Shown: positions 15,347 to 39,249 of the stretch, piece after piece
Position numbering within the stretch: the first letter of the stretch is position 1
Layout: each line of letters starts with the position of its first letter
Virus record (IMG/VR): IMGVR_UViG_2861079508_000003
Coordinates: 1-39,249 of that record
Strand: one strand, 5' to 3'
DNA length: 39,249 nt
Source of the DNA: a virus
Taxonomy: Duplodnaviria; Heunggongvirae; Uroviricota; Caudoviricetes
The notes under the pieces: model-generated
Told to the model about the DNA's origin: nothing
The model's database searches: none
The model's input: only the letters and a program-made list of their open reading frames with translations
Position numbers and translations under genes: made by a program

Positions 15347-15531
15347 ACGCCACAATTCAAACGATACCAGAGCTTCTTATCCAGACACGAGGCAATCAGA
15401 CCGAAGTGGCAAGGATGCTTTCCTGCGCAAGAGGAACAGTGCTCAAGTACAACCGAGACAGCAAAGGCGAGCGTCACGTAATAGTTAACGGCGTCCTGAT
15501 GGTCAAACAGGGCAAGAGGGGAAGACGATGA
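15343..15531 (+). CDS. ninH: NinH protein (62 aa)
   Basis: ..GNQTEVARMLSCARGTVLKYNRD..VIVNGVLMV.. parallels lambda NinH (..GNQTEVARRLKCSRGTVRKYVDD..AIVNDVLMV..). Confidence 0.7.
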   Translation: MNATIQTIPELLIQTRGNQTEVARMLSCARGTVLKYNRDSKGERHVIVNGVLMVKQGKRGRR

Positions 15532-16046
15532 GCATAAGAGAACTAAACCTCACCAAAGAACAGCACGATTGGCTGAATGGCTGGCTTGAACTGTGGGGAG
15601 CATGGGTTTATTCAGGTCGTCTGGAAAAGCGCATGAGCAGCGTAATAGCTAAGTTCATGGAGAGCGTAGAGCCGGGAAGAGTTATGACAAGGCCAATGTG
15701 TAATGATGATGATGGAATGTTGATTTCTCAGGTCGTCGATTCCGTCATGTACATTGACAAGAAAGCCTTTGGCATCCTCCTCAGCTACTACGCTCATGGT
15801 TCATCTAAGCGAGCAATTGCATCCTACTATCACGCGACTGCAAAGCCACGCAAGATGTGTGGACGTGGTGGCGAGGGATGGAGAAAACCTTCACTGGCAA
15901 CCTGTAGAAACGAAATTGACGACATCCTGAAAGCGTCATTATTTGTTTTATACCAGCCAATGCAAAATGCTTTCAAAATGCGTAAACGTGTTGAGAAAGT
16001 TAAGCATGTTGCCGTTAAAAGCCTTGACATGCAATTAGCCATTTAG
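15528..16046 (+). CDS. Q: Late-gene antitermination protein Q (non-lambda Q family; 172 aa)
   Basis: Last gene before the late promoter and lysis genes; resembles antiterminator Q proteins of the phage-82 type from memory; a promoter and close terminator follow. Confidence 0.65.
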   Translation: MSIRELNLTKEQHDWLNGWLELWGAWVYSGRLEKRMSSVIAKFMESVEPGRVMTRPMCNDDDGMLISQVVDSVMYIDKKAFGILLSYYAHGSSKRAIASYYHATAKPRKMCGRGGEGWRKPSLATCRNEIDDILKASLFVLYQPMQNAFKMRKRVEKVKHVAVKSLDMQLAI

Positions 16047-16053
16047 CCATAAT
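16024..16053 (+). promoter_or_regulatory. Putative late promoter PR' (-35 TTGACA, about 18-bp spacer, -10 CATAAT)
   Basis: Consensus -35 hexamer overlapping the last codons of Q, with a good -10, as for lambdoid PR'. Confidence 0.5.
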
Positions 16054-16096
16054 ATTCACATATGCTGCTGCTTTTGCATTCAGCAACCATCACAAG

Positions 16097-16118
16097 CCCA
16101 CCTCCTGTGGGTTTTTTT
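16097..16118 (+). terminator. Putative tR' terminator downstream of PR'
   Basis: Hairpin CCCAC-CTCCT-GTGGG followed by TTTTTTT about 50 nt downstream of the predicted start. Confidence 0.55.
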
Positions 16119-16240: not shown

Positions 16241-16753
16241 ATGAAAGAAATAAAATTAACGCCAGAAATGGTGCTTTCTGTTGTTGATTACAATCCATCA
16301 TCAGGCGACTTTCACTGGAGATGGAGGCAGGGGAGAGAGAGGACCACTTTGACATGGAACTCTCGTTTTGCTTTCAAGAAATGCTCATCAATAAATTCTG
16401 ATGGGTATTTAATGATTATGATTAATGGTAAAGCATACCCTGCTCACAGACTGGCATGGTTGATTGTTTATGGCACCATGCCCGATGGTTTTATTGATCA
16501 CATCAACAGGGTAAGAACAGATAACCGGATATCAAATCTTCGTCTTGTCACTCATTCCGAAAATATGCAAAACAGGAAAATTCAGAAGAATAATAAATCT
16601 GGATACCGTGGCGTGTCTTGGGATGCTAAGTACGGGAAATGGAGAGCAAGAATTAATGCGTCTGGAAAGTGTATTAACCTTGGATACCATGACACTGCCG
16701 AACTTGCCGCTGCGGCTTTTGAGGCAGCCAGAATGAAATATCATACCGTTTAA
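16241..16753 (+). CDS. HNH homing-endonuclease-like protein with AP2-type domain (170 aa)
   Basis: ..AHRLAWLIVYGTMPDGFIDHINRVRTDNRISNLRLVTHSENMQNR.. (HNH_3) plus ..SGYRGVSWDAKYGKWRARI..GYHDTAELAAAAFEAA.. (AP2-like); inserted in the late-operon leader. Confidence 0.75.
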   Translation: MKEIKLTPEMVLSVVDYNPSSGDFHWRWRQGRERTTLTWNSRFAFKKCSSINSDGYLMIMINGKAYPAHRLAWLIVYGTMPDGFIDHINRVRTDNRISNLRLVTHSENMQNRKIQKNNKSGYRGVSWDAKYGKWRARINASGKCINLGYHDTAELAAAAFEAARMKYHTV

Positions 16754-16807: not shown

Positions 16808-16882
16808 GGGTCAGTCGTATAAAGGTCATTACGGAAGGCTGTTAACCTTCTTATCGTGGTTCGAGTCCACGCTGTCCCGCCA
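16808..16882 (+). tRNA. tRNA-Asn (anticodon GTT), putative
   Basis: Hand-folded cloverleaf: 7-bp acceptor stem (one U-U mismatch), D-arm with GG, anticodon loop CTGTTAA, T-arm CGTGG-TTCGAGT-CCACG, discriminator G and encoded CCA. Confidence 0.5.
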
Positions 16883-16887
16883 AATAT

Positions 16888-16963
16888 GCTGGTTTAGCTC
16901 CAATGGTAGAGCAGTCGCCTTGTAAGCGAATGGGTAGCGGTTCAAGTCCGTTAACCAGCACCA
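16888..16963 (+). tRNA. tRNA-Thr (anticodon TGT), putative
   Basis: Hand-folded cloverleaf: acceptor GCTGGTT/AACCAGC, D-stem GCTC/GAGC, anticodon loop CTTGTAA, T-arm AGCGG-TTCAAGT-CCGTT, discriminator A and encoded CCA; 76 nt. Confidence 0.6.
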
Positions 16964-26510: not shown

Positions 26511-27929
26511 ATGCCGATTCAGCAACTTCCGCTTATGAAAGGTGTCGGCAAAGACTTTCGAAACGCCGACTATATCGACTATCTGCCAGTGAATATGCTG
26601 GCTACACCCAAAGAAATCCTCAACAGCAGCGGATATCTTCGCTCATTCCCGGGCATTGCCAAACGCTCTGACGTGAACGGCGTATCGCGAGGCGTCGAGT
26701 ACAACATGGCGCAGAATGCTGTTTATCGCGTGTGTGGTGGCAAGCTGTACAAAGGAGAAAGTGAAGTCGGTGATGTTGCCGGAAGTGGTCGTGTATCAAT
26801 GGCTCATGGTCGGACATCTCAGGCTGTAGGCGTTAATGGTCAACTGGTCGAGTATCGCTATGATGGCACGGTTAAAACCGTCTCAAACTGGCCTGCAGAC
26901 AGCGGATTCACGCAGTATGAGTTAGGCTCAGTCCGCGACATTACGCGATTACGTGGGCGTTATGCGTGGTCAAAAGACGGCACCGATTCATGGTTTATCA
27001 CTGACCCTGAAGACGAATCGCATCCTGACCGCTACAGCGCACAATATCGGGCAGAATCACAGCCTGACGGAATAATCGGTATCGGAACATGGCGAGACTT
27101 CATTGTCTGCTTTGGTTCATCGACGATTGAATATTTCTCCCTGACTGGTGCAACCACCGTTGGTGCCGCGTTGTATGTCGCACAGCCATCGCTGATGGTG
27201 CAGAAAGGTATTGCCGGGACTTACTGCAAAACGCCGTTTGCTGATTCGTATGCGTTCATCAGCAATCCGGCAACGGGTGCGCCATCTGTATACATCATCG
27301 GCTCCGGTCAGGTGTCACCAATCGCCAGCGCGAGCATTGAGAAAATCCTCCGCTCCTACACTGCTGATGAACTGGCTGATGGTGTGATGGAATCGCTGCG
27401 ATTTGATGCTCATGAGTTGCTGATTATCCACCTTCCGCGCCATGTTCTCGTGTACGACGCATCTTCAAGCGCCAATGGTCCTCAATGGTGTGTGCTGAAA
27501 ACAGGGCTGTATGACGATGTGTACCGCGCTATCGACTTCATTTACGAAGGCAATCAGATAACGTGCGGCGATAAGCTGGAATCGGTTACCGGCAAATTGC
27601 AGTTCGATATCAGCAGCCAGTACGACAAGCAACAGGAACATATTTTATATTCTCCTTTAATAAAGGCAGATAACGTTTTAATAAATGACCTTGAATTAGA
27701 AACATCTGGCGGCGTGTGTGATAGAATAGATAGAATATTTATATCAGCAACTACAGATGGAATTAATTACGGTCGTGAGCAAATGGTCGTATTACAAAAA
27801 CCATTTGTATATGACAATCGCGTTTTATGGCGAAAAGTTGGTCGAGTTAGACGCCTCATCGGATTTAAATTCAGAGTTATTGCAAAAGGTCCTGTTACAT
27901 TATCAGGCCTTTCTATTCGTGTAACATAA
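26511..27929 (+). CDS. Tail accessory / head-completion protein (P22 gp10 type; 472 aa)
   Basis: Same length as P22 gp10 and correct synteny (4-10-26). Confidence 0.8.
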   Translation: MPIQQLPLMKGVGKDFRNADYIDYLPVNMLATPKEILNSSGYLRSFPGIAKRSDVNGVSRGVEYNMAQNAVYRVCGGKLYKGESEVGDVAGSGRVSMAHGRTSQAVGVNGQLVEYRYDGTVKTVSNWPADSGFTQYELGSVRDITRLRGRYAWSKDGTDSWFITDPEDESHPDRYSAQYRAESQPDGIIGIGTWRDFIVCFGSSTIEYFSLTGATTVGAALYVAQPSLMVQKGIAGTYCKTPFADSYAFISNPATGAPSVYIIGSGQVSPIASASIEKILRSYTADELADGVMESLRFDAHELLIIHLPRHVLVYDASSSANGPQWCVLKTGLYDDVYRAIDFIYEGNQITCGDKLESVTGKLQFDISSQYDKQQEHILYSPLIKADNVLINDLELETSGGVCDRIDRIFISATTDGINYGREQMVVLQKPFVYDNRVLWRKVGRVRRLIGFKFRVIAKGPVTLSGLSIRVT

Positions 27930-27958
27930 ATCGAAACTAAAGGAGTAGATATGTTGAG

Positions 27959-27966
27959 TGAAAACG
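27959..27966. repeat. IS1 target-site duplication, left copy (TGAAAACG)
   Basis: Identical 8-mer directly flanks both IS1 ends. Confidence 0.6.
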
Positions 27967-27981
27967 GGTAATGACTCCAAC

Positions 27982-28485
27982 TTATTGATAGTGTTTTATG
28001 TTCAGATAATGCCCGATGACTTTGTCATGCAGCTCCACCGATTTTGAGAACGACAGCGACTTCCGTCCCAGCCGTGCCAGGTGCTGCCTCAGATTCAGGT
28101 TATGCCGCTCAATTCGCTGCGTATATCGCTTGCTGATTACGTGCAGCTTTCCCTTCAGGCGGGATTCATACAGCGGCCAGCCATCCGTCATCCATATCAC
28201 CACGTCAAAGGGTGACAGCAGGCTCATAAGACGCCCCAGCGTCGCCATAGTGCGTTCACCGAATACGTGCGCAACAACCGTCTTCCGGAGCCTGTCATAC
28301 GCGTAAAACAGCCAGCGCTGGCGCGATTTAGCCCCGACATAGCCCCACTGTTCGTCCATTTCCGCGCAGACGATGACGTCACTGCCCGGCTGTATGCGCG
28401 AGGTTACCGACTGCGGCCTGAGTTTTTTAAGTGACGTAAAATCGTGTTGAGGCCAACGCCCATAATGCGGGCTGTTGCCCGGCAT
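27982..28485 (-). CDS. insB: IS1 transposase InsB (expressed as InsAB' by frameshift in canonical IS1)
   Basis: [58 protein letters not shown].. matches IS1 InsB. Confidence 0.9.
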
Positions 28486-28679
28486 CCAACGCCATTCATG
28501 GCCATATCAATGATTTTCTGGTGCGTACCGGGTTGAGAAGCGGTGTAAGTGAACTGCAGTTGCCATGTTTTACGGCAGTGAGAGCAGAGATAGCGCTGAT
28601 GTCCGGCGGTGCTTTTGCCGTTACGCACCACCCCGTCAGTAGCTGAACAGGAGGGACAGCTGATAGAAACAGAAGCCAC
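28404..28679 (-). CDS. insA: IS1 protein InsA
   Basis: [68 protein letters not shown].. matches IS1 InsA. Confidence 0.9.
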
Positions 28680-28734
28680 TGGAGCACCTCAAAAACACCA
28701 TCATACACTAAATCAGTAAGTTGGCAGCATCACC

Positions 28735-28742
28735 TGAAAACG
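28735..28742. repeat. IS1 target-site duplication, right copy (TGAAAACG)
   Basis: Identical 8-mer to 27959-27966. Confidence 0.6.
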
Positions 28743-29264
28743 CAAAAGATATTCCTGGATATGAAGGTTTATATGCCGTAACAGAGGATGGGCGAGTATA
28801 TTCTCACTCACGTGTTGTTAAGGCTGCGCATGGCAGCACGCAACTCAGAAAGGGGCGGTGGCTAAAACAACACGAGAATAATAAAGGTTATCTATATTTG
28901 CCACTTAGTGTTGATGGAGTTAAAGTAAAATGGCTTGTGCATAGGCTTGTCGCTCTTGCTTTCGTCCCCAACCCAGAAGGCAAGCCGTTCATAAATCACA
29001 TAGATAACAACCCAAAAAATAATAATGCTTCTAATTTAGAGTGGTGCACTCAAAAGGAGAATATGAAGTATTGCTCATCTCAAGGCAGGGTGAAGTTCCC
29101 GGCTTTAAAAGGAGAAAATAATCCAATTTCAAAGCTCTCATATGAGCAAGTAATAGAAATAAAGAAATCAAAGGGAGTTAATCAAAGAGAGCTTGCTAAA
29201 AAATACTGTGTCAGTCAGACGGTGATTCACAATATCCAGTCTGGTAAATCGTGGAGGCATGTTA

Positions 29265-30113
29265 ATGGCTGATTCGAATCTCAATACACCTGTTATTGTT
29301 CAGGCGACGCGGCTCGATACATCAGTCCTTCCACGCAATATCTTCTCGCAGTCGTATCTGCTTTACGTTATCGCACAGGGCACTGATGTTGGTAACGTGG
29401 CTAACAAGGCCAACGAGGCCGGACAGGGCGCTTATGACGCACAAGTCAGGAACGATGAGCAGGATGTGATTCTCGCTGACCATGAGCAGCGAATTTCTGC
29501 TGCGGAAGCAACGCTTGTTAATCATGAGGAGCGAATCAGCCAGGCAGAATCAACTCTTCAGGAACATGAAACACGAATAGCTCAGAATGAAAGCGATATT
29601 GCGTCTCTTGATACCAGAGTTCAGTCGCTCGAATCGCAGGTTTCAGACCATGAAACGCGCATCGATGCTCTGGAGTATGCCACTAATCGCAAAAAGTCAG
29701 AGGTTGTTTACTCTGGCGTATCTGTAACCATCCCGACAGCGCCGACCAACCTTGTTAGCCTGCTGAAAACGCTCACTCCGTCATCCGGCACGTTGGCACC
29801 GTTCTTCGACACCGTTAACAACAAGATGGTTGTGTTCAACGAGAACAAAACCTTGTTCTTCAAGCTGTCGATCGTCGGGACGTGGCCCAGCGGAACCGCC
29901 AACAGGTCAATGCAGCTAACATTTTCCGGTTCTGTTCCTGACACACTGGTAAGCAGTCGCAACTCGGCGACAACAACCGACAACATCCTGTTAGCTACGT
30001 TCTTCAGCGTGGATAAAGACGGCTTTCTTGCCACAAATGGCAGTACGTTAACCATTCAGTCGAATGGTGCGGCGTTTACTGCCACAACCATCAAGATAAT
30101 CGCGGAGCAGTGA
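29265..30113 (+). CDS. Tail needle protein (P22 gp26 type N-terminus with a different C-terminal domain)
   Basis: [68 protein letters not shown].. matches recalled P22 gp26 N-terminus, then heptad-rich coiled coil; C-terminal about 130 aa differ from P22. Confidence 0.8.
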
Positions 30114-34787: not shown

Positions 34788-35273
34788 TTATCTTATGTTA
34801 CTGCTACTGTTGCATGTGACTGTATTTCCAAACCCTGAATTGCAGTTTGTGTAAGTGTCAACGCGTGTTGGATAGGGTTGAGTTATAACAGGCTGTCTCG
34901 CTTTTTGCTCGATCGCTTGCATTGTGTTTACAGCCTGATAATTCAATAAAGCCTGCTGGAATGCTTGGCTTTGTGCTATTTGTTGGGCTTGTTCTTGGCT
35001 TTGTAATTGAACATAAAGATTCTGAAGCTCAAGTCTTGCCTGTGCGTCACTTATCTTGCCTTCATCGACACCTTGCCCGAGCATCTTTGCAGCAAGGACA
35101 TACAGCTTAGGTGTTGGTGCTGATGCCATGCGTGAGTCGTTCTTCACACTGGCATCAAGGCAATTAGCCATATCGCTAAGCTTTTGATAGCGTTGTTCGC
35201 AACTTGCTTGATAGTCACTTACTTTTGCGCATCCAACCAGCAGAAGCGGGATAATTAACAGTGATTTTTTCAT
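34788..35273 (-). CDS. Putative lipoprotein (signal peptide with lipobox LLVGC; about 161 aa from internal ATG)
   Basis: MKKSLLIIPLLLVGCAK.. is a textbook lipoprotein signal peptide; Gln-rich helical middle; lies downstream of mnt on the same strand, where P22 carries sieA. Confidence 0.55.
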   Translation of the reverse strand: MKKSLLIIPLLLVGCAKVSDYQASCEQRYQKLSDMANCLDASVKNDSRMASAPTPKLYVLAAKMLGQGVDEGKISDAQARLELQNLYVQLQSQEQAQQIAQSQAFQQALLNYQAVNTMQAIEQKARQPVITQPYPTRVDTYTNCNSGFGNTVTCNSSSNIR

Positions 35274-35343
35274 ATGGTTAACTCTCCTTAGTTTTTCACA
35301 GGATATCATGAAGGCTATGCCATTTTAGCCGGAAACTAGATTT

Positions 35344-35643
35344 CTATGTTTCCTTTTTATTATTGCTATACATGGTCTTAAGCGTATCAAAGACAATTTT
35401 CTTAACCATCTCAGATTGTTGTTCTGCCATACGCTCTGCATCGTCAATGTAAACAGATGCAGAGCTTTCTTTAGCCAATGATTCTTCAATCGCTGCAATT
35501 ATCTCTGAGTTCAGAGACCTGTTATTCATCTTCGCACGCTGTTTAATCTTCGCGTGGAGTTCATGCGGAAGTCTCAAGTGAAACTGCGCCTCGTCGTATT
35601 TGCTGTACATCCTTGATGCCTCACCAGTTGGGTGGAATGGCAT
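35344..35643 (-). CDS. mnt: Mnt-like ribbon-helix-helix repressor (Arc/MetJ family)
   Basis: ..FHLRLPHELHAKIKQRAKMNNRSLNSEIIAAIEESL.....DDAERMAEQQSEMVKKIVFDTLKTMY.. parallels recalled P22 Mnt; start could be Met1 or Met12 (35610). Confidence 0.7.
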   Translation of the reverse strand: MPFHPTGEASRMYSKYDEAQFHLRLPHELHAKIKQRAKMNNRSLNSEIIAAIEESLAKESSASVYIDDAERMAEQQSEMVKKIVFDTLKTMYSNNKKET

Positions 35644-35741
35644 CGTAACCTACTGGATAAATACTCAATAGTACCATTTCGGTATGCAATCACATCATGG
35701 TTGCATCATATCATTCGTCTGGAGCAATGAAATGTCAGATA

Positions 35742-36281
35742 TCACCTACCATGATTCTCATGATAACCATAGGTCTTTTCAGCCTCACGCCTTACAGCAA
35801 TTGCATCATCGAGACACTTAAAGTATCCGAGATTAATGCGCTTCCCTGCGTCGCTAATATATGCCACCCACTTTTTATGGGTCTTATGCCATGAAACACC
35901 TGCGCACCCAGATGTATTGTTTGTGTATTTAGATTTGTTTTTTAGGTTTTCACCGAGACTAACTAGACGCAGGTTGTCTATTGAATTATTTAACCCATTA
36001 CCATCTTTATGGTCAATTTGCATTCCTGAAGGGATTTCACCATAAAACATTTCCCATATTATCCTATGGGCGGCGTATATTTTATCTTGATACCTGATAA
36101 TTATATAAGATGTTTTCCTGTTCTTGTCCTTGAATATATGTCCTGCAGGCTTTTCTTTAGAGATATTGAACATTTTGGGTCTTGAAAGATATTGGTCACT
36201 CCAGTACAGGAGTCCATCGTCTTTTAATACGAATACTTCGTTCCAGTTCATGTTAACCACCTTTAAATAAAGTTCACTCAT
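35742..36281 (-). CDS. HNH homing-endonuclease-like protein with AP2-type domain (179 aa)
   Basis: ..[47 protein letters not shown].. (HNH_3) plus ..[36 protein letters not shown] (AP2-like); occupies the position of arc/ant in P22. Confidence 0.7.
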
Positions 36282-36338
36282 TATACAAAAAACATGCTAG
36301 CAATGAATATTGCTTGCTTAACATATAGAGAAATTAAA

Positions 36339-38816
36339 ATGACAGATTCAATAAATGCCAATGTTGTAGTCAGCATGCCTTCGCAACTCTTCACTATGGC
36401 TCGTTCTTTTAAAGCCGTAGCTAATGGAAAGATTTATATCGGTAAAATTGACACTGACCCAGTAAATCCTGAAAACCAGATTCAGGTTTATGTGGAGAAT
36501 GAAGACGGTTCTCACGTTCCTGTTTCGCAGCCAATCATCATTAACGCTGCTGGATATCCGGTATATAACGGACAGATTGCCAAGTTCGTAACTGTGCAAG
36601 GCCATTCTATGGCTGTATACGATGCGTATGGTGCGCAGCAGTTCTATTTTCCTAATGTGCTGAAGTATGACCCCGATCAGCTACGGCCGCAATTAGAAGA
36701 TCCAGATGGCGCTAAAAAATATCCTGAGTTGCAGATGGCACGATGGAGAGATTGTGGAGATGTTAGAGGGTGGGGAGCAAAAATAGATGGGGTAACAGAT
36801 GATTCAGATGCTTTTATTAAAGCTTTAAACTCTGGAAGGTCGGTTATAACAATTCCTGAAGGAATATGCATCATCAAGAAGAATATTAACATTCCTGAGG
36901 GGTGTTCACTGGTTGGATCTGGCATTGATTATTGGGATACATATAGACCAGCGCCTGAAAGATTATTAAAAAGTTGGAGCAAAGGAACCCATCTTGTATT
37001 TACTGGTGATGGAGAAAAAAACAAATATTTTTTTAACATCTCTAATGAAAGACCGGTTAAAATTGTTGAAGGGATATCTTGTAAGTTCACTGAGTTTACG
37101 AATGAAGATTCTGTAGGTGTTACTCCTGCTACACCAAAAGCCATGAGCGTAGCTGTTAGTATCAACAGGGCATCACAGTTACGCAATCTGAGAATAATGG
37201 TAAGTAAAAATGGTATTGAAGGATACAATAACCCTGATTCTTATTCATTGGGTGATAACTGGGATATAGGGTTGCATGTATACGATAGCTGTGATTCAGT
37301 TATTGATAACGTACAGATTGTCGGATATTGGAGGGTAAAAGGACTACTACTGACAGAAAATGACGGGAGCCTTTCAATGAAGGGAAATCCTGAAAAAACG
37401 CACTTTAATAACGTTTATGTCCAGTCAGGAATCGCGATAAGGAATAGCCCTCAGATTGATCTTGTAAGTAATACTGAAAGCTCAGTGACATTTAAACATA
37501 AAAAGTCGATGAGAATAACTTCAGTTAAACAGTTTAAAATTGCTGGCAGTGAATCAGTATATACGTATTCAGATGCATCATTTGATGGAACTAACATCAC
37601 ACTATCTGGTATTTCTCCTGAAATACAAGGTACAATAAGTGTAATAAGGTTTCCGTCAATTGGTAATAATTTTAGCGGGACTGTTTTTGAGAATACAGTA
37701 GCCACTACTCTTGATCATACATCAGGTAAGCCATCAGAATACTTTGGCCTTCCTGCATCCTTTGCATTAGAGGTTGATGGTTTCCCTGTTCGTAATTTAA
37801 GGTTTGATAAATTCAAAGCTCAAACAACATTTGATAAAGGAAATTGCATTTTTGGTGATTGCCGTGATGTTAAAATAACATCATCTGAGTTTGAAAATGG
37901 AATTATGATTGCGTATAACCTGACCGAGACTCAGGGTTATACAGGAAATCTTAGATTTTTTGCTTCTGATCTTCAGAGCAGCGTTAACACAAGTGAGTTT
38001 AAACCAAGAGACGCATTTGTAGACAATAGACAAATAAAAACGGAGTTTACTGATGGTTCGTTCATCATAAAGAACTGGAGGCCTACAGATACAAAAATAC
38101 AATGGTCGTCTGGAGTAGATGCTATTGTTCTTAGAGAGTCACCTGACGAACAATCAAACGGAAATATTTCCGGGCATCACATTGATGGTAAAAGATGGAT
38201 TTATGTTAGTGGATATAACAAAGATATAAATATTTCATCAAGAAACTTAAGCGTAAAAAACCATGGTGATGACTCTGCAGTTATTAATATATTCGGCGAC
38301 TCTGGAAATATTGCCATTAAAGGTAATTTTTCACCAATTATTGATAACAGCAAATCTCTTGGTGCACCATCATTTAGATGGGCTCAGATTTATTCTGCAT
38401 CCGGGACTATAAGCACATCAGATGAAACACTTAAAACAATATATGACATTACTCAGGCAGAGCGTGATGCTGCGCTGGAAATAAAGGGAATTATATGCAA
38501 GTTCAGGTTTAATGAGTCGATTAATTTTAAAGGATTGGAGTTATCAAGGTATCATTTTGGAGTTGGCGCTCAAACCGTAGGAGATATTCTTAGAAAGCAT
38601 GGTTTAAATCCTGAGCAATATGCTTTTTGGTGTTACGATGAATGGCCAGACGTATGGGATGAAGAGGTGATAACTGAAGAGAGCACAGATCCTGATACAG
38701 GTGAGAAAATTTATTCTCAATATAAAACAGGAAATATGATTCTTGTAAAAAAAGCAGGTGGACGCTACGGAATTCGTTATGACGAATTGGCTATGTTTAT
38801 ATTAATGGCAATGTAG
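36339..38816 (+). CDS. Tailspike protein: P22-type N-terminal head-binding domain, divergent receptor-binding domain, C-terminal intramolecular-chaperone-like domain
   Basis: From ATG at 36339: [60 protein letters not shown].. matches recalled P22 gp9 for about 115 aa; the rest differs; C-terminus (..[29 protein letters not shown]..) resembles auto-cleaving chaperone domains. Confidence 0.8.
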
Positions 38817-38864: not shown

Positions 38865-39249
38865 ATCTAGTGTATTTGTGAGTTTTAAATAAAATTTGGT
38901 ATGGATTCTTGCATCGTAGTGAACGCATGATTACCTATGAAACAAAACTGAGACACACAAAGCTTTGCACTGGATTGCAAGGCTTTGTGCTCTTCGATGG
39001 TGGTTAAGGTGGATCACTCCACCTTTTCATCAAGCCAGTCCGCCCACCACTGCATCATTTCTCTGCGCTTAACGTAGTTGATGCATCACTATCACCCTGT
39101 AATGGCTTATTACTGGTTTGCAGACAGGTAGGCATGAACATATGCCTGCGCATGAAGATGGAACTAGTCCGGATGCGATATTTTTGGTGATCACGTACAT
39201 CATCAACGAAGTGCGTTATGGTGAGTTTGATGACTACCCGCTGAAGTGA

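Follow-up and report, generated by a model that had tools for sequence, protein, structure and literature searches.

An apparently recent IS1 insertion divides a putative free-standing HNH homing endonuclease gene in the late operon of a P22-like Escherichia coli prophage

The prophage sequence analyzed here (39,249 nucleotides; hereafter, the window) carries IS1 at positions 27967 to 28734, on the minus strand, within an HNH endonuclease gene located, in the late structural operon, between gp10 and gp26. The arrangement is best accounted for by a single recent transposition of an IS1A-type element, which would have entered the HNH gene at codon 6, duplicating 8 bp of the target. The gene would thereby have been cut off from its own ribosome-binding site and ATG, with the native start yielding only a 6-codon stump, and the remaining open reading frame (ORF) could be started only at a TTG in the left inverted repeat (IRL) that has no Shine-Dalgarno sequence; little useful endonuclease would be expected. 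The late transcript gains approximately 750 nt of RNA that is for the most part untranslated and in part C rich, which could bring Rho-dependent polarity, while Q antitermination and the strong ribosome-binding site of gp26 would leave expression of the needle and ejection genes reduced at most, not abolished, and the prophage would presumably remain viable. We give this joint explanation (a recent IS1 hit, with the endonuclease likely lost and downstream expression at most reduced) a probability of roughly 85%.

The element is exactly 768 bp in length. Its right end (IRR, 27967 to 27989) opens with GGTAATGACTCC (longer read, GGTAATGACTCCAAC), and the other end (IRL, 28712 to 28734) finishes with GGCAGCATCACC, the reverse complement of IRL (longer read, GTTGGCAGCATCACC); both ends have 0 mismatches to the canonical 23-bp IRR and IRL of IS1. 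No further IS1 ends were found when the window was scanned with these 23-bp repeats. Across all 768 bp, the window copy is 100% identical to copies annotated as "IS1-like element IS1A family transposase," placing it in the IS1A sequence type, and in a plasmid search IS1 was present at an identity of at least 99% in 4,971 of the 5,000 best-scoring records. Consistent with the IS1 family, imperfect terminal inverted repeats (GGTRATG...) bound an element of ~768 bp that contains an intact insA (28404 to 28679, minus strand; 91 amino acids [aa]; Pfam Zn_ribbon_InsA and HTH_Tnp_IS1) and an intact insB' frame (27982 to 28485, minus strand; 167 aa) with a DDE domain (Pfam DDE_Tnp_IS1, 261 bits). The A6C motif for -1 frameshifting, which gives the DDE transposase InsAB', was located at approximately 28420 to 28430 on the minus strand (TTAAAAAACTC, a motif match at IS1 position 305). 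Alignment to annotated IS1A copies agreed with the original prediction of a complete 768-bp IS1 at these positions. In length, sequence, IRL and IRR, insA and insB', and the A6C motif, the element does not differ from the IS1 copies (IS1A/IS1E consensus type) of E. coli K-12 and enterobacterial plasmids, and it is the insertion site alone that is lineage specific. Its identity to active IS1A suggests that this copy may itself be capable of transposition. A consensus scan also returned, as a pattern match only, a candidate inward IS1 promoter in IRL (CTGCCA-16-TATGAT; 28700 to 28727, minus strand) that is directed antisense to the phage late operon.

IS1 is flanked by two copies of TGAAAACG, at 27959 to 27966 and 28735 to 28742, and reinspection bore out the predicted identity of the flanking 8-mers, which match exactly on both sides. 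Identical 8-mers at two fixed positions would occur by chance with a probability of 4^-8 (~1.5e-5). A 9-bp duplication was ruled out by comparing GTGAAAACG with CTGAAAACG and TGAAAACGG with TGAAAACGC. IS1 duplications of 8 or 9 bp have been reported (PMC12428005, PMC12903888), and the 8-bp duplication seen here falls inside that range (PMC12428005). The GC content of the insertion site lies at the 9th to 16th percentile of the window, which is compatible with an AT-rich target preference, although this is a weak test.

To represent the uninterrupted locus, a restored query was built by removing IS1 and one copy of the duplication and retaining the flanks. It gave a single uninterrupted alignment, at 97.4 to 97.7% identity, in five complete E. 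coli genomes, and aligned with phage HZ41 as one uninterrupted piece across 84% of the query length. The empty site, GATATGTTGAGTGAAAACGCAAAAGATATT, with exactly one TGAAAACG, was identified in two E. coli prophages and in phage HZ41, so that comparison with relatives lacking IS1, a check proposed with the original prediction, yielded three independent relatives with a single copy of the 8-mer. A query with the occupied junction found it in none of 5,426 complete E. coli genomes, and the match of every relative among them ended exactly at the IS1 boundary; the insertion is thus private to one lineage. The exact junction 34-mer was likewise absent from the GTDB representative genomes. In the phage collection, for which the restored query alone was used, an occupied copy would appear as two joined pieces, and no such split match was found in the phage records.

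As adjacent deletions are often mediated by IS1, and as IS1 collapses in short-read assemblies, we considered whether the element marks a rearrangement (a deletion, an inversion, or a composite transposon) or a mis-assembly and not a simple insertion. This reading is vanishingly improbable and is refuted by the perfect duplication, the presence of a single IS1 in the window, flanks that are collinear base for base with the empty sites, and the reproduction of both junctions in independent read sets. In the latter, Logan short-read contigs from SRR30178658 and SRR30178647 cross these junctions and stop after 30 bp of IRR and 28 bp of IRL. As both junctions recur as contig ends in separate sequencing runs, the insertion is real and not an artefact. 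It is also, by sequence comparison, evolutionarily recent: its IS1 matches the consensus without a difference, the duplicated 8-mers have not diverged, and the HNH sequence downstream is 99.8% identical to an intact allele.

IS1 splits the HNH gene 1 nt beyond codon 5, in keeping with the predicted break after that codon. Upstream of the element remain the AAGGAG that serves the native HNH start as its Shine-Dalgarno sequence (27940 to 27945, plus strand; anti-Shine-Dalgarno duplex of -8.2 kcal/mol, spacing of ~5 nt) and an orphaned 5' stump (27951 to 27971, plus strand) that encodes MLSENG, with five native codons from the ATG on, followed by GGG TAA from IS1. The native ATG at 27951 and its ribosome-binding site were therefore left behind as the original prediction had described, with translation from them now stopping after 6 codons. 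The rest of the gene (28743 to 29272, plus strand) is undamaged. In silico deletion of IS1 and one TGAAAACG copy produces a 546-nt ORF of 181 aa, and the single ORF that had been predicted to result equals, in length and N terminus, the intact gene annotated in relatives, where a 546-nt gene with the same start is designated "NUMOD4 domain-containing protein." Pfam searches with the restored protein identified NUMOD4 at residues 7 to 60 (44.6 bits; cutoff, 23.4), HNH_3 (39.7 bits; cutoff, 24.8), and a weak C-terminal HTH. Among solved structures, the protein is closest to I-HmuI (1U3E; E = 1.2e-11), with the H...N...N residues aligned. The intact gene of E. coli BS15R-A shares 99.8% nucleotide identity with the HNH part downstream of IS1, implying that the HNH gene was intact when IS1 struck.

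Taken together with its distribution, these sequence features identify the disrupted gene as a putative free-standing, I-HmuI-like HNH homing endonuclease gene. I-HmuI of phage SPO1 shares with it an HNH nuclease core and NUMOD-type DNA-binding modules, but I-HmuI is intron encoded, whereas the window gene is free standing and intergenic. In this it resembles the free-standing HNH "mob" endonucleases of T4-like phages, which are intergenic, are present or absent in otherwise collinear phages, and have a diverged flank as co-conversion predicts (PMC2988022), although a homing function for the P22-like cassette is putative.

The HNH gene forms part of a low-GC island at approximately 27640 to 29265, a cassette that also includes the 3' end of gp10. 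The gp10 gene (26511 to 27929, plus strand; head closure and packaged-DNA stabilization; 472 aa; Pfam Phage_stabilise, 939.6 bits) is intact, and 371 of its first 376 residues are identical to those of Sf6 gp10. Its last ~290 bp (27640 to 27929, plus strand; boundary approximate), the left part of the cassette, are recoded, sharing 57% nucleotide and 62% amino acid identity with Sf6, compared with ~95% nucleotide identity upstream, and having a GC3 of 0.19 versus 0.61. In Sf6, N7, and EC17GD31 the HNH gene is absent and the gp10 stop abuts the gp26 start. A query spanning gp10, HNH, and gp26 matched 1,166 of the 5,426 E. coli genomes; the recoded gp10 end was found in 51 of the 5,426 and the HNH allele of the window in 15, and in every row inspected the recoded end adjoined a NUMOD4-type gene. 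Presence or absence at a fixed site in collinear genomes, together with a diverged flank, is the pattern of free-standing homing endonucleases with co-converted flanks (PMC2988022). The recoded gp10 end accordingly looks like the co-converted, cleavage-immune flank of a homing cassette, and the HNH gene like an optional selfish cassette between gp10 and gp26 that most E. coli relatives are without. As such a cassette is optional and is absent from most relatives, loss of the HNH gene should cost the phage nothing. The empty sites, the Pfam matches, the similarity to I-HmuI, and the polymorphism of the cassette all support the earlier description of a mobile element nested in a mobile element within a structural operon.

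The window encodes two more free-standing endonucleases with HNH_3 and AP2 domains (phrog_99). One (16241 to 16753, plus strand) lies in the leader of the late operon, past the late promoter/terminator and before the tRNA genes, and the other (35742 to 36281, minus strand) is just upstream of the tailspike gene. That the three HNH genes are recent duplicates of one another was rejected, as similarity is confined to the HNH core, at 32 to 34% identity over 44 to 65 aa.

Downstream of the native stump, a 183-aa ORF (28721 to 29272, plus strand; MAASPENAKD...; WP_088845958.1/ASI16050.1) extends from a TTG inside IRL through the remainder of the HNH gene. It corresponds to the HNH gene minus its first three residues, with MAASP replacing MLS and the first five codons being IS1 inverted-repeat sequence. 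Read in the HNH frame, the TTG is the first canonical start encountered past an in-frame stop at 28709; later in-frame starts, at codons 60, 73, and 115, all lie past NUMOD4, so that only the TTG retains this domain. Exact protein look-ups returned ASI16049 to ASI16051 (locus tags CE141_09630/09650) on an E. coli chromosome. If the TTG were a functional start, a chimeric and fully active endonuclease would still be made, as the ORF keeps all of NUMOD4 (native residues 7 to 60) and the HNH motif, and NCBI annotates it. Pairing of the 22 nt upstream of the TTG with the anti-Shine-Dalgarno sequence amounts to only -0.2 kcal/mol, compared with -8.2 kcal/mol for the native ATG, and is bettered by most sampled window positions, ~62% of which score -2.0 kcal/mol or better; TTG is, moreover, a weak start codon, and the annotation is automatic, reflecting ORF length and an HMM match and giving no sign of translation. 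Weak initiation at the TTG, or reinitiation past an ORF of 36 codons that is antisense to IS1 (28609 to 28719) and stops 1 nt before the TTG, is conceivable, but the Shine-Dalgarno pairing of that ORF is itself poor and badly spaced (-2.7 kcal/mol, 18 nt from the start). Production of an active chimera is therefore judged quite unlikely. Of the fusion start proposed in the original prediction, the in-frame, publicly annotated ORF is real, while its efficient use is unlikely in view of the missing Shine-Dalgarno sequence. As the TTG has essentially no such pairing, the endonuclease has most likely been effectively knocked out.

Were active endonuclease nevertheless available, as the chimera or supplied in trans by a coinfecting HNH-positive phage, IS1 could still travel with the homing cassette, although we regard this as a long shot. 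Repair of the double-strand breaks made in P22-like phages that lack the HNH gene would then carry over the whole low-GC cassette by co-conversion, IS1 included, and IS1 would gain a route from phage to phage that does not require transposition.

IS1 has historically been known as a polar insertion, and a terminator inside it was reportedly described by Hubner, Iida, and Arber in 1987 (cited in PMC12095673). For IS1 polarity in both orientations, a search of open-access papers turned up reference-list entries only. In the window, the element adds to the late transcript ~750 nt past the stump stop in which no ORF has a good ribosome-binding site. On the late-sense strand C exceeds G across 28063 to 28350 (C/G, 1.28 to 1.55), making Rho loading plausible, and a late-sense scan of IS1 detected one weak terminator-like hairpin (28594 to 28608; 5-bp stem). 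These features, with the terminator on record, favor a strongly polar IS1, in which case late transcripts would end within the untranslated IS1 segment, leaving gp26, gp14, and the gp7, gp20, and gp16 ejection proteins underproduced and the prophage effectively defective. A strong intrinsic terminator in the late sense was rejected, however, as the single candidate does not exceed shuffled sequences (mean, 1.7). A hybrid outward promoter using TTGGCA in IRL as its -35 was also rejected, there being, by eye, no acceptable -10 at 16 to 18 nt and none reported by the scan.

Also weighing against strong polarity is gp26 itself (29265 to 30113, plus strand; tail needle with an Sf6-type knob; 282 aa; Pfam Phage_tail_NK, 387.9 bits), which has its own strong Shine-Dalgarno sequence, GGAGG at 29252 to 29256 (duplex of -9.3 kcal/mol; spacing of 6). 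The HNH gene and gp26 share 8 nt at the HNH stop, and the gp26 start, at 29265, is the one annotated in relatives; an exact look-up of a 284-aa start variant gave no match, and the 282-aa variant matched. Farther upstream, a Q-type late antiterminator is encoded at 15528 to 16046 (plus strand; phrog_943 at 2.2e-93; Pfam Phage_antitermQ, 90.1 bits). Overlapping the end of this gene, ~11.9 kb upstream of IS1, a consensus scan returned, as a pattern match only, a candidate late promoter (TTGACA-18-CATAAT; 11 of 12 consensus positions) followed by a terminator hairpin with an 8-bp stem and a T-run (together, 16024 to 16114, plus strand), a candidate for the classic PR'/tR' arrangement of Q-dependent late transcription. 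The Q protein of lambda suppresses polarity (PMC12360218), and the viability of Sf6 despite a genomic IS911 (PMC5630979) likewise argues against a severe defect. A prophage made defective by strong polarity thus appears improbable, though less so than a working TTG start. Some polarity toward gp26 and the ejection genes may occur but is probably blunted by the strong ribosome-binding site of gp26 and by putative Q antitermination of the late operon. The polarity on tail needle and ejection genes raised in the original prediction therefore stands as a possibility, with a strong effect less likely in view of the GGAGG of gp26, and the functional suggestions made there were probably overstated.

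The window as a whole is a mosaic P22-like (Lederbergvirus-type) E. coli prophage, large blocks of which share 95 to 97% nucleotide identity with Dewey, HZ41, Sf6, and Gally. Its gene order begins with xis and the early left genes and continues through a CI-like repressor, replication genes, the nin region, and Q to the lysis genes. The ORF list, Pfam, and PHROG assignments gave the late operon order of P22-like phages, namely, terminase, portal, scaffold, coat, gp4, gp10, HNH::IS1, gp26, gp14, gp7, gp20, and gp16, and a minus-strand gene block (34788 to 36281) and the tailspike gene follow gp16.

The IS911 of Sf6 offers the closest parallel, being likewise a host IS in a nonessential gene of a P22-like prophage, oriented against late transcription (PMC5630979). 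Sf6 carrying IS911 stays viable, headful packaging absorbs the extra DNA, and loss of IS911 raises fitness (PMC5630979). The two cases differ in that IS911 belongs to the IS3 family and lies in the early nin region, whereas the window element is an IS1 inside the late structural operon, and in that the gene disrupted here appears to be a selfish element itself. Nothing in the locus departs from known kinds: the event is ordinary, the locus is already publicly annotated, and current understanding is unchanged, so that the finding carries little weight beyond annotation. It does place three mobile layers one within another (IS1 in a putative homing cassette in a prophage), and the "NUMOD4 domain-containing protein" of the public record would be better called an IS1-disrupted homing endonuclease gene. 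The locus may also lend itself, as a natural experiment, to asking whether IS1 polarity is suppressed by Q antitermination in a late operon of the P22 type.

Several further features of the prophage were noted. Genes for tRNA-Asn(GTT) (16808 to 16882) and tRNA-Thr(TGT) (16888 to 16963) come after the Q/late promoter region and ahead of the lysis cassette. The tailspike gene (36294 to 38816; 840 aa) encodes a conserved P22-like N-terminal head-binding domain. Its receptor-binding part has a low GC content (~0.33) and, as it matches several different tailspike and tail-fiber PHROGs, suggests a mosaic host-range module. Relatives sharing the window ends are integrated between sbcB and dacD. At its left end (1 to 192), the window opens on the stop codon of a xis-like HTH gene, and the integrase lies immediately beyond the boundary. 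Toward the right end, the reverse-strand translation of approximately 39013 to 39071 was read by eye as an integrase C terminus, and phage IME10, with an annotated integrase in the part that aligns, ceases to match at 39071; the region from 39013 to 39249 is likely attR.
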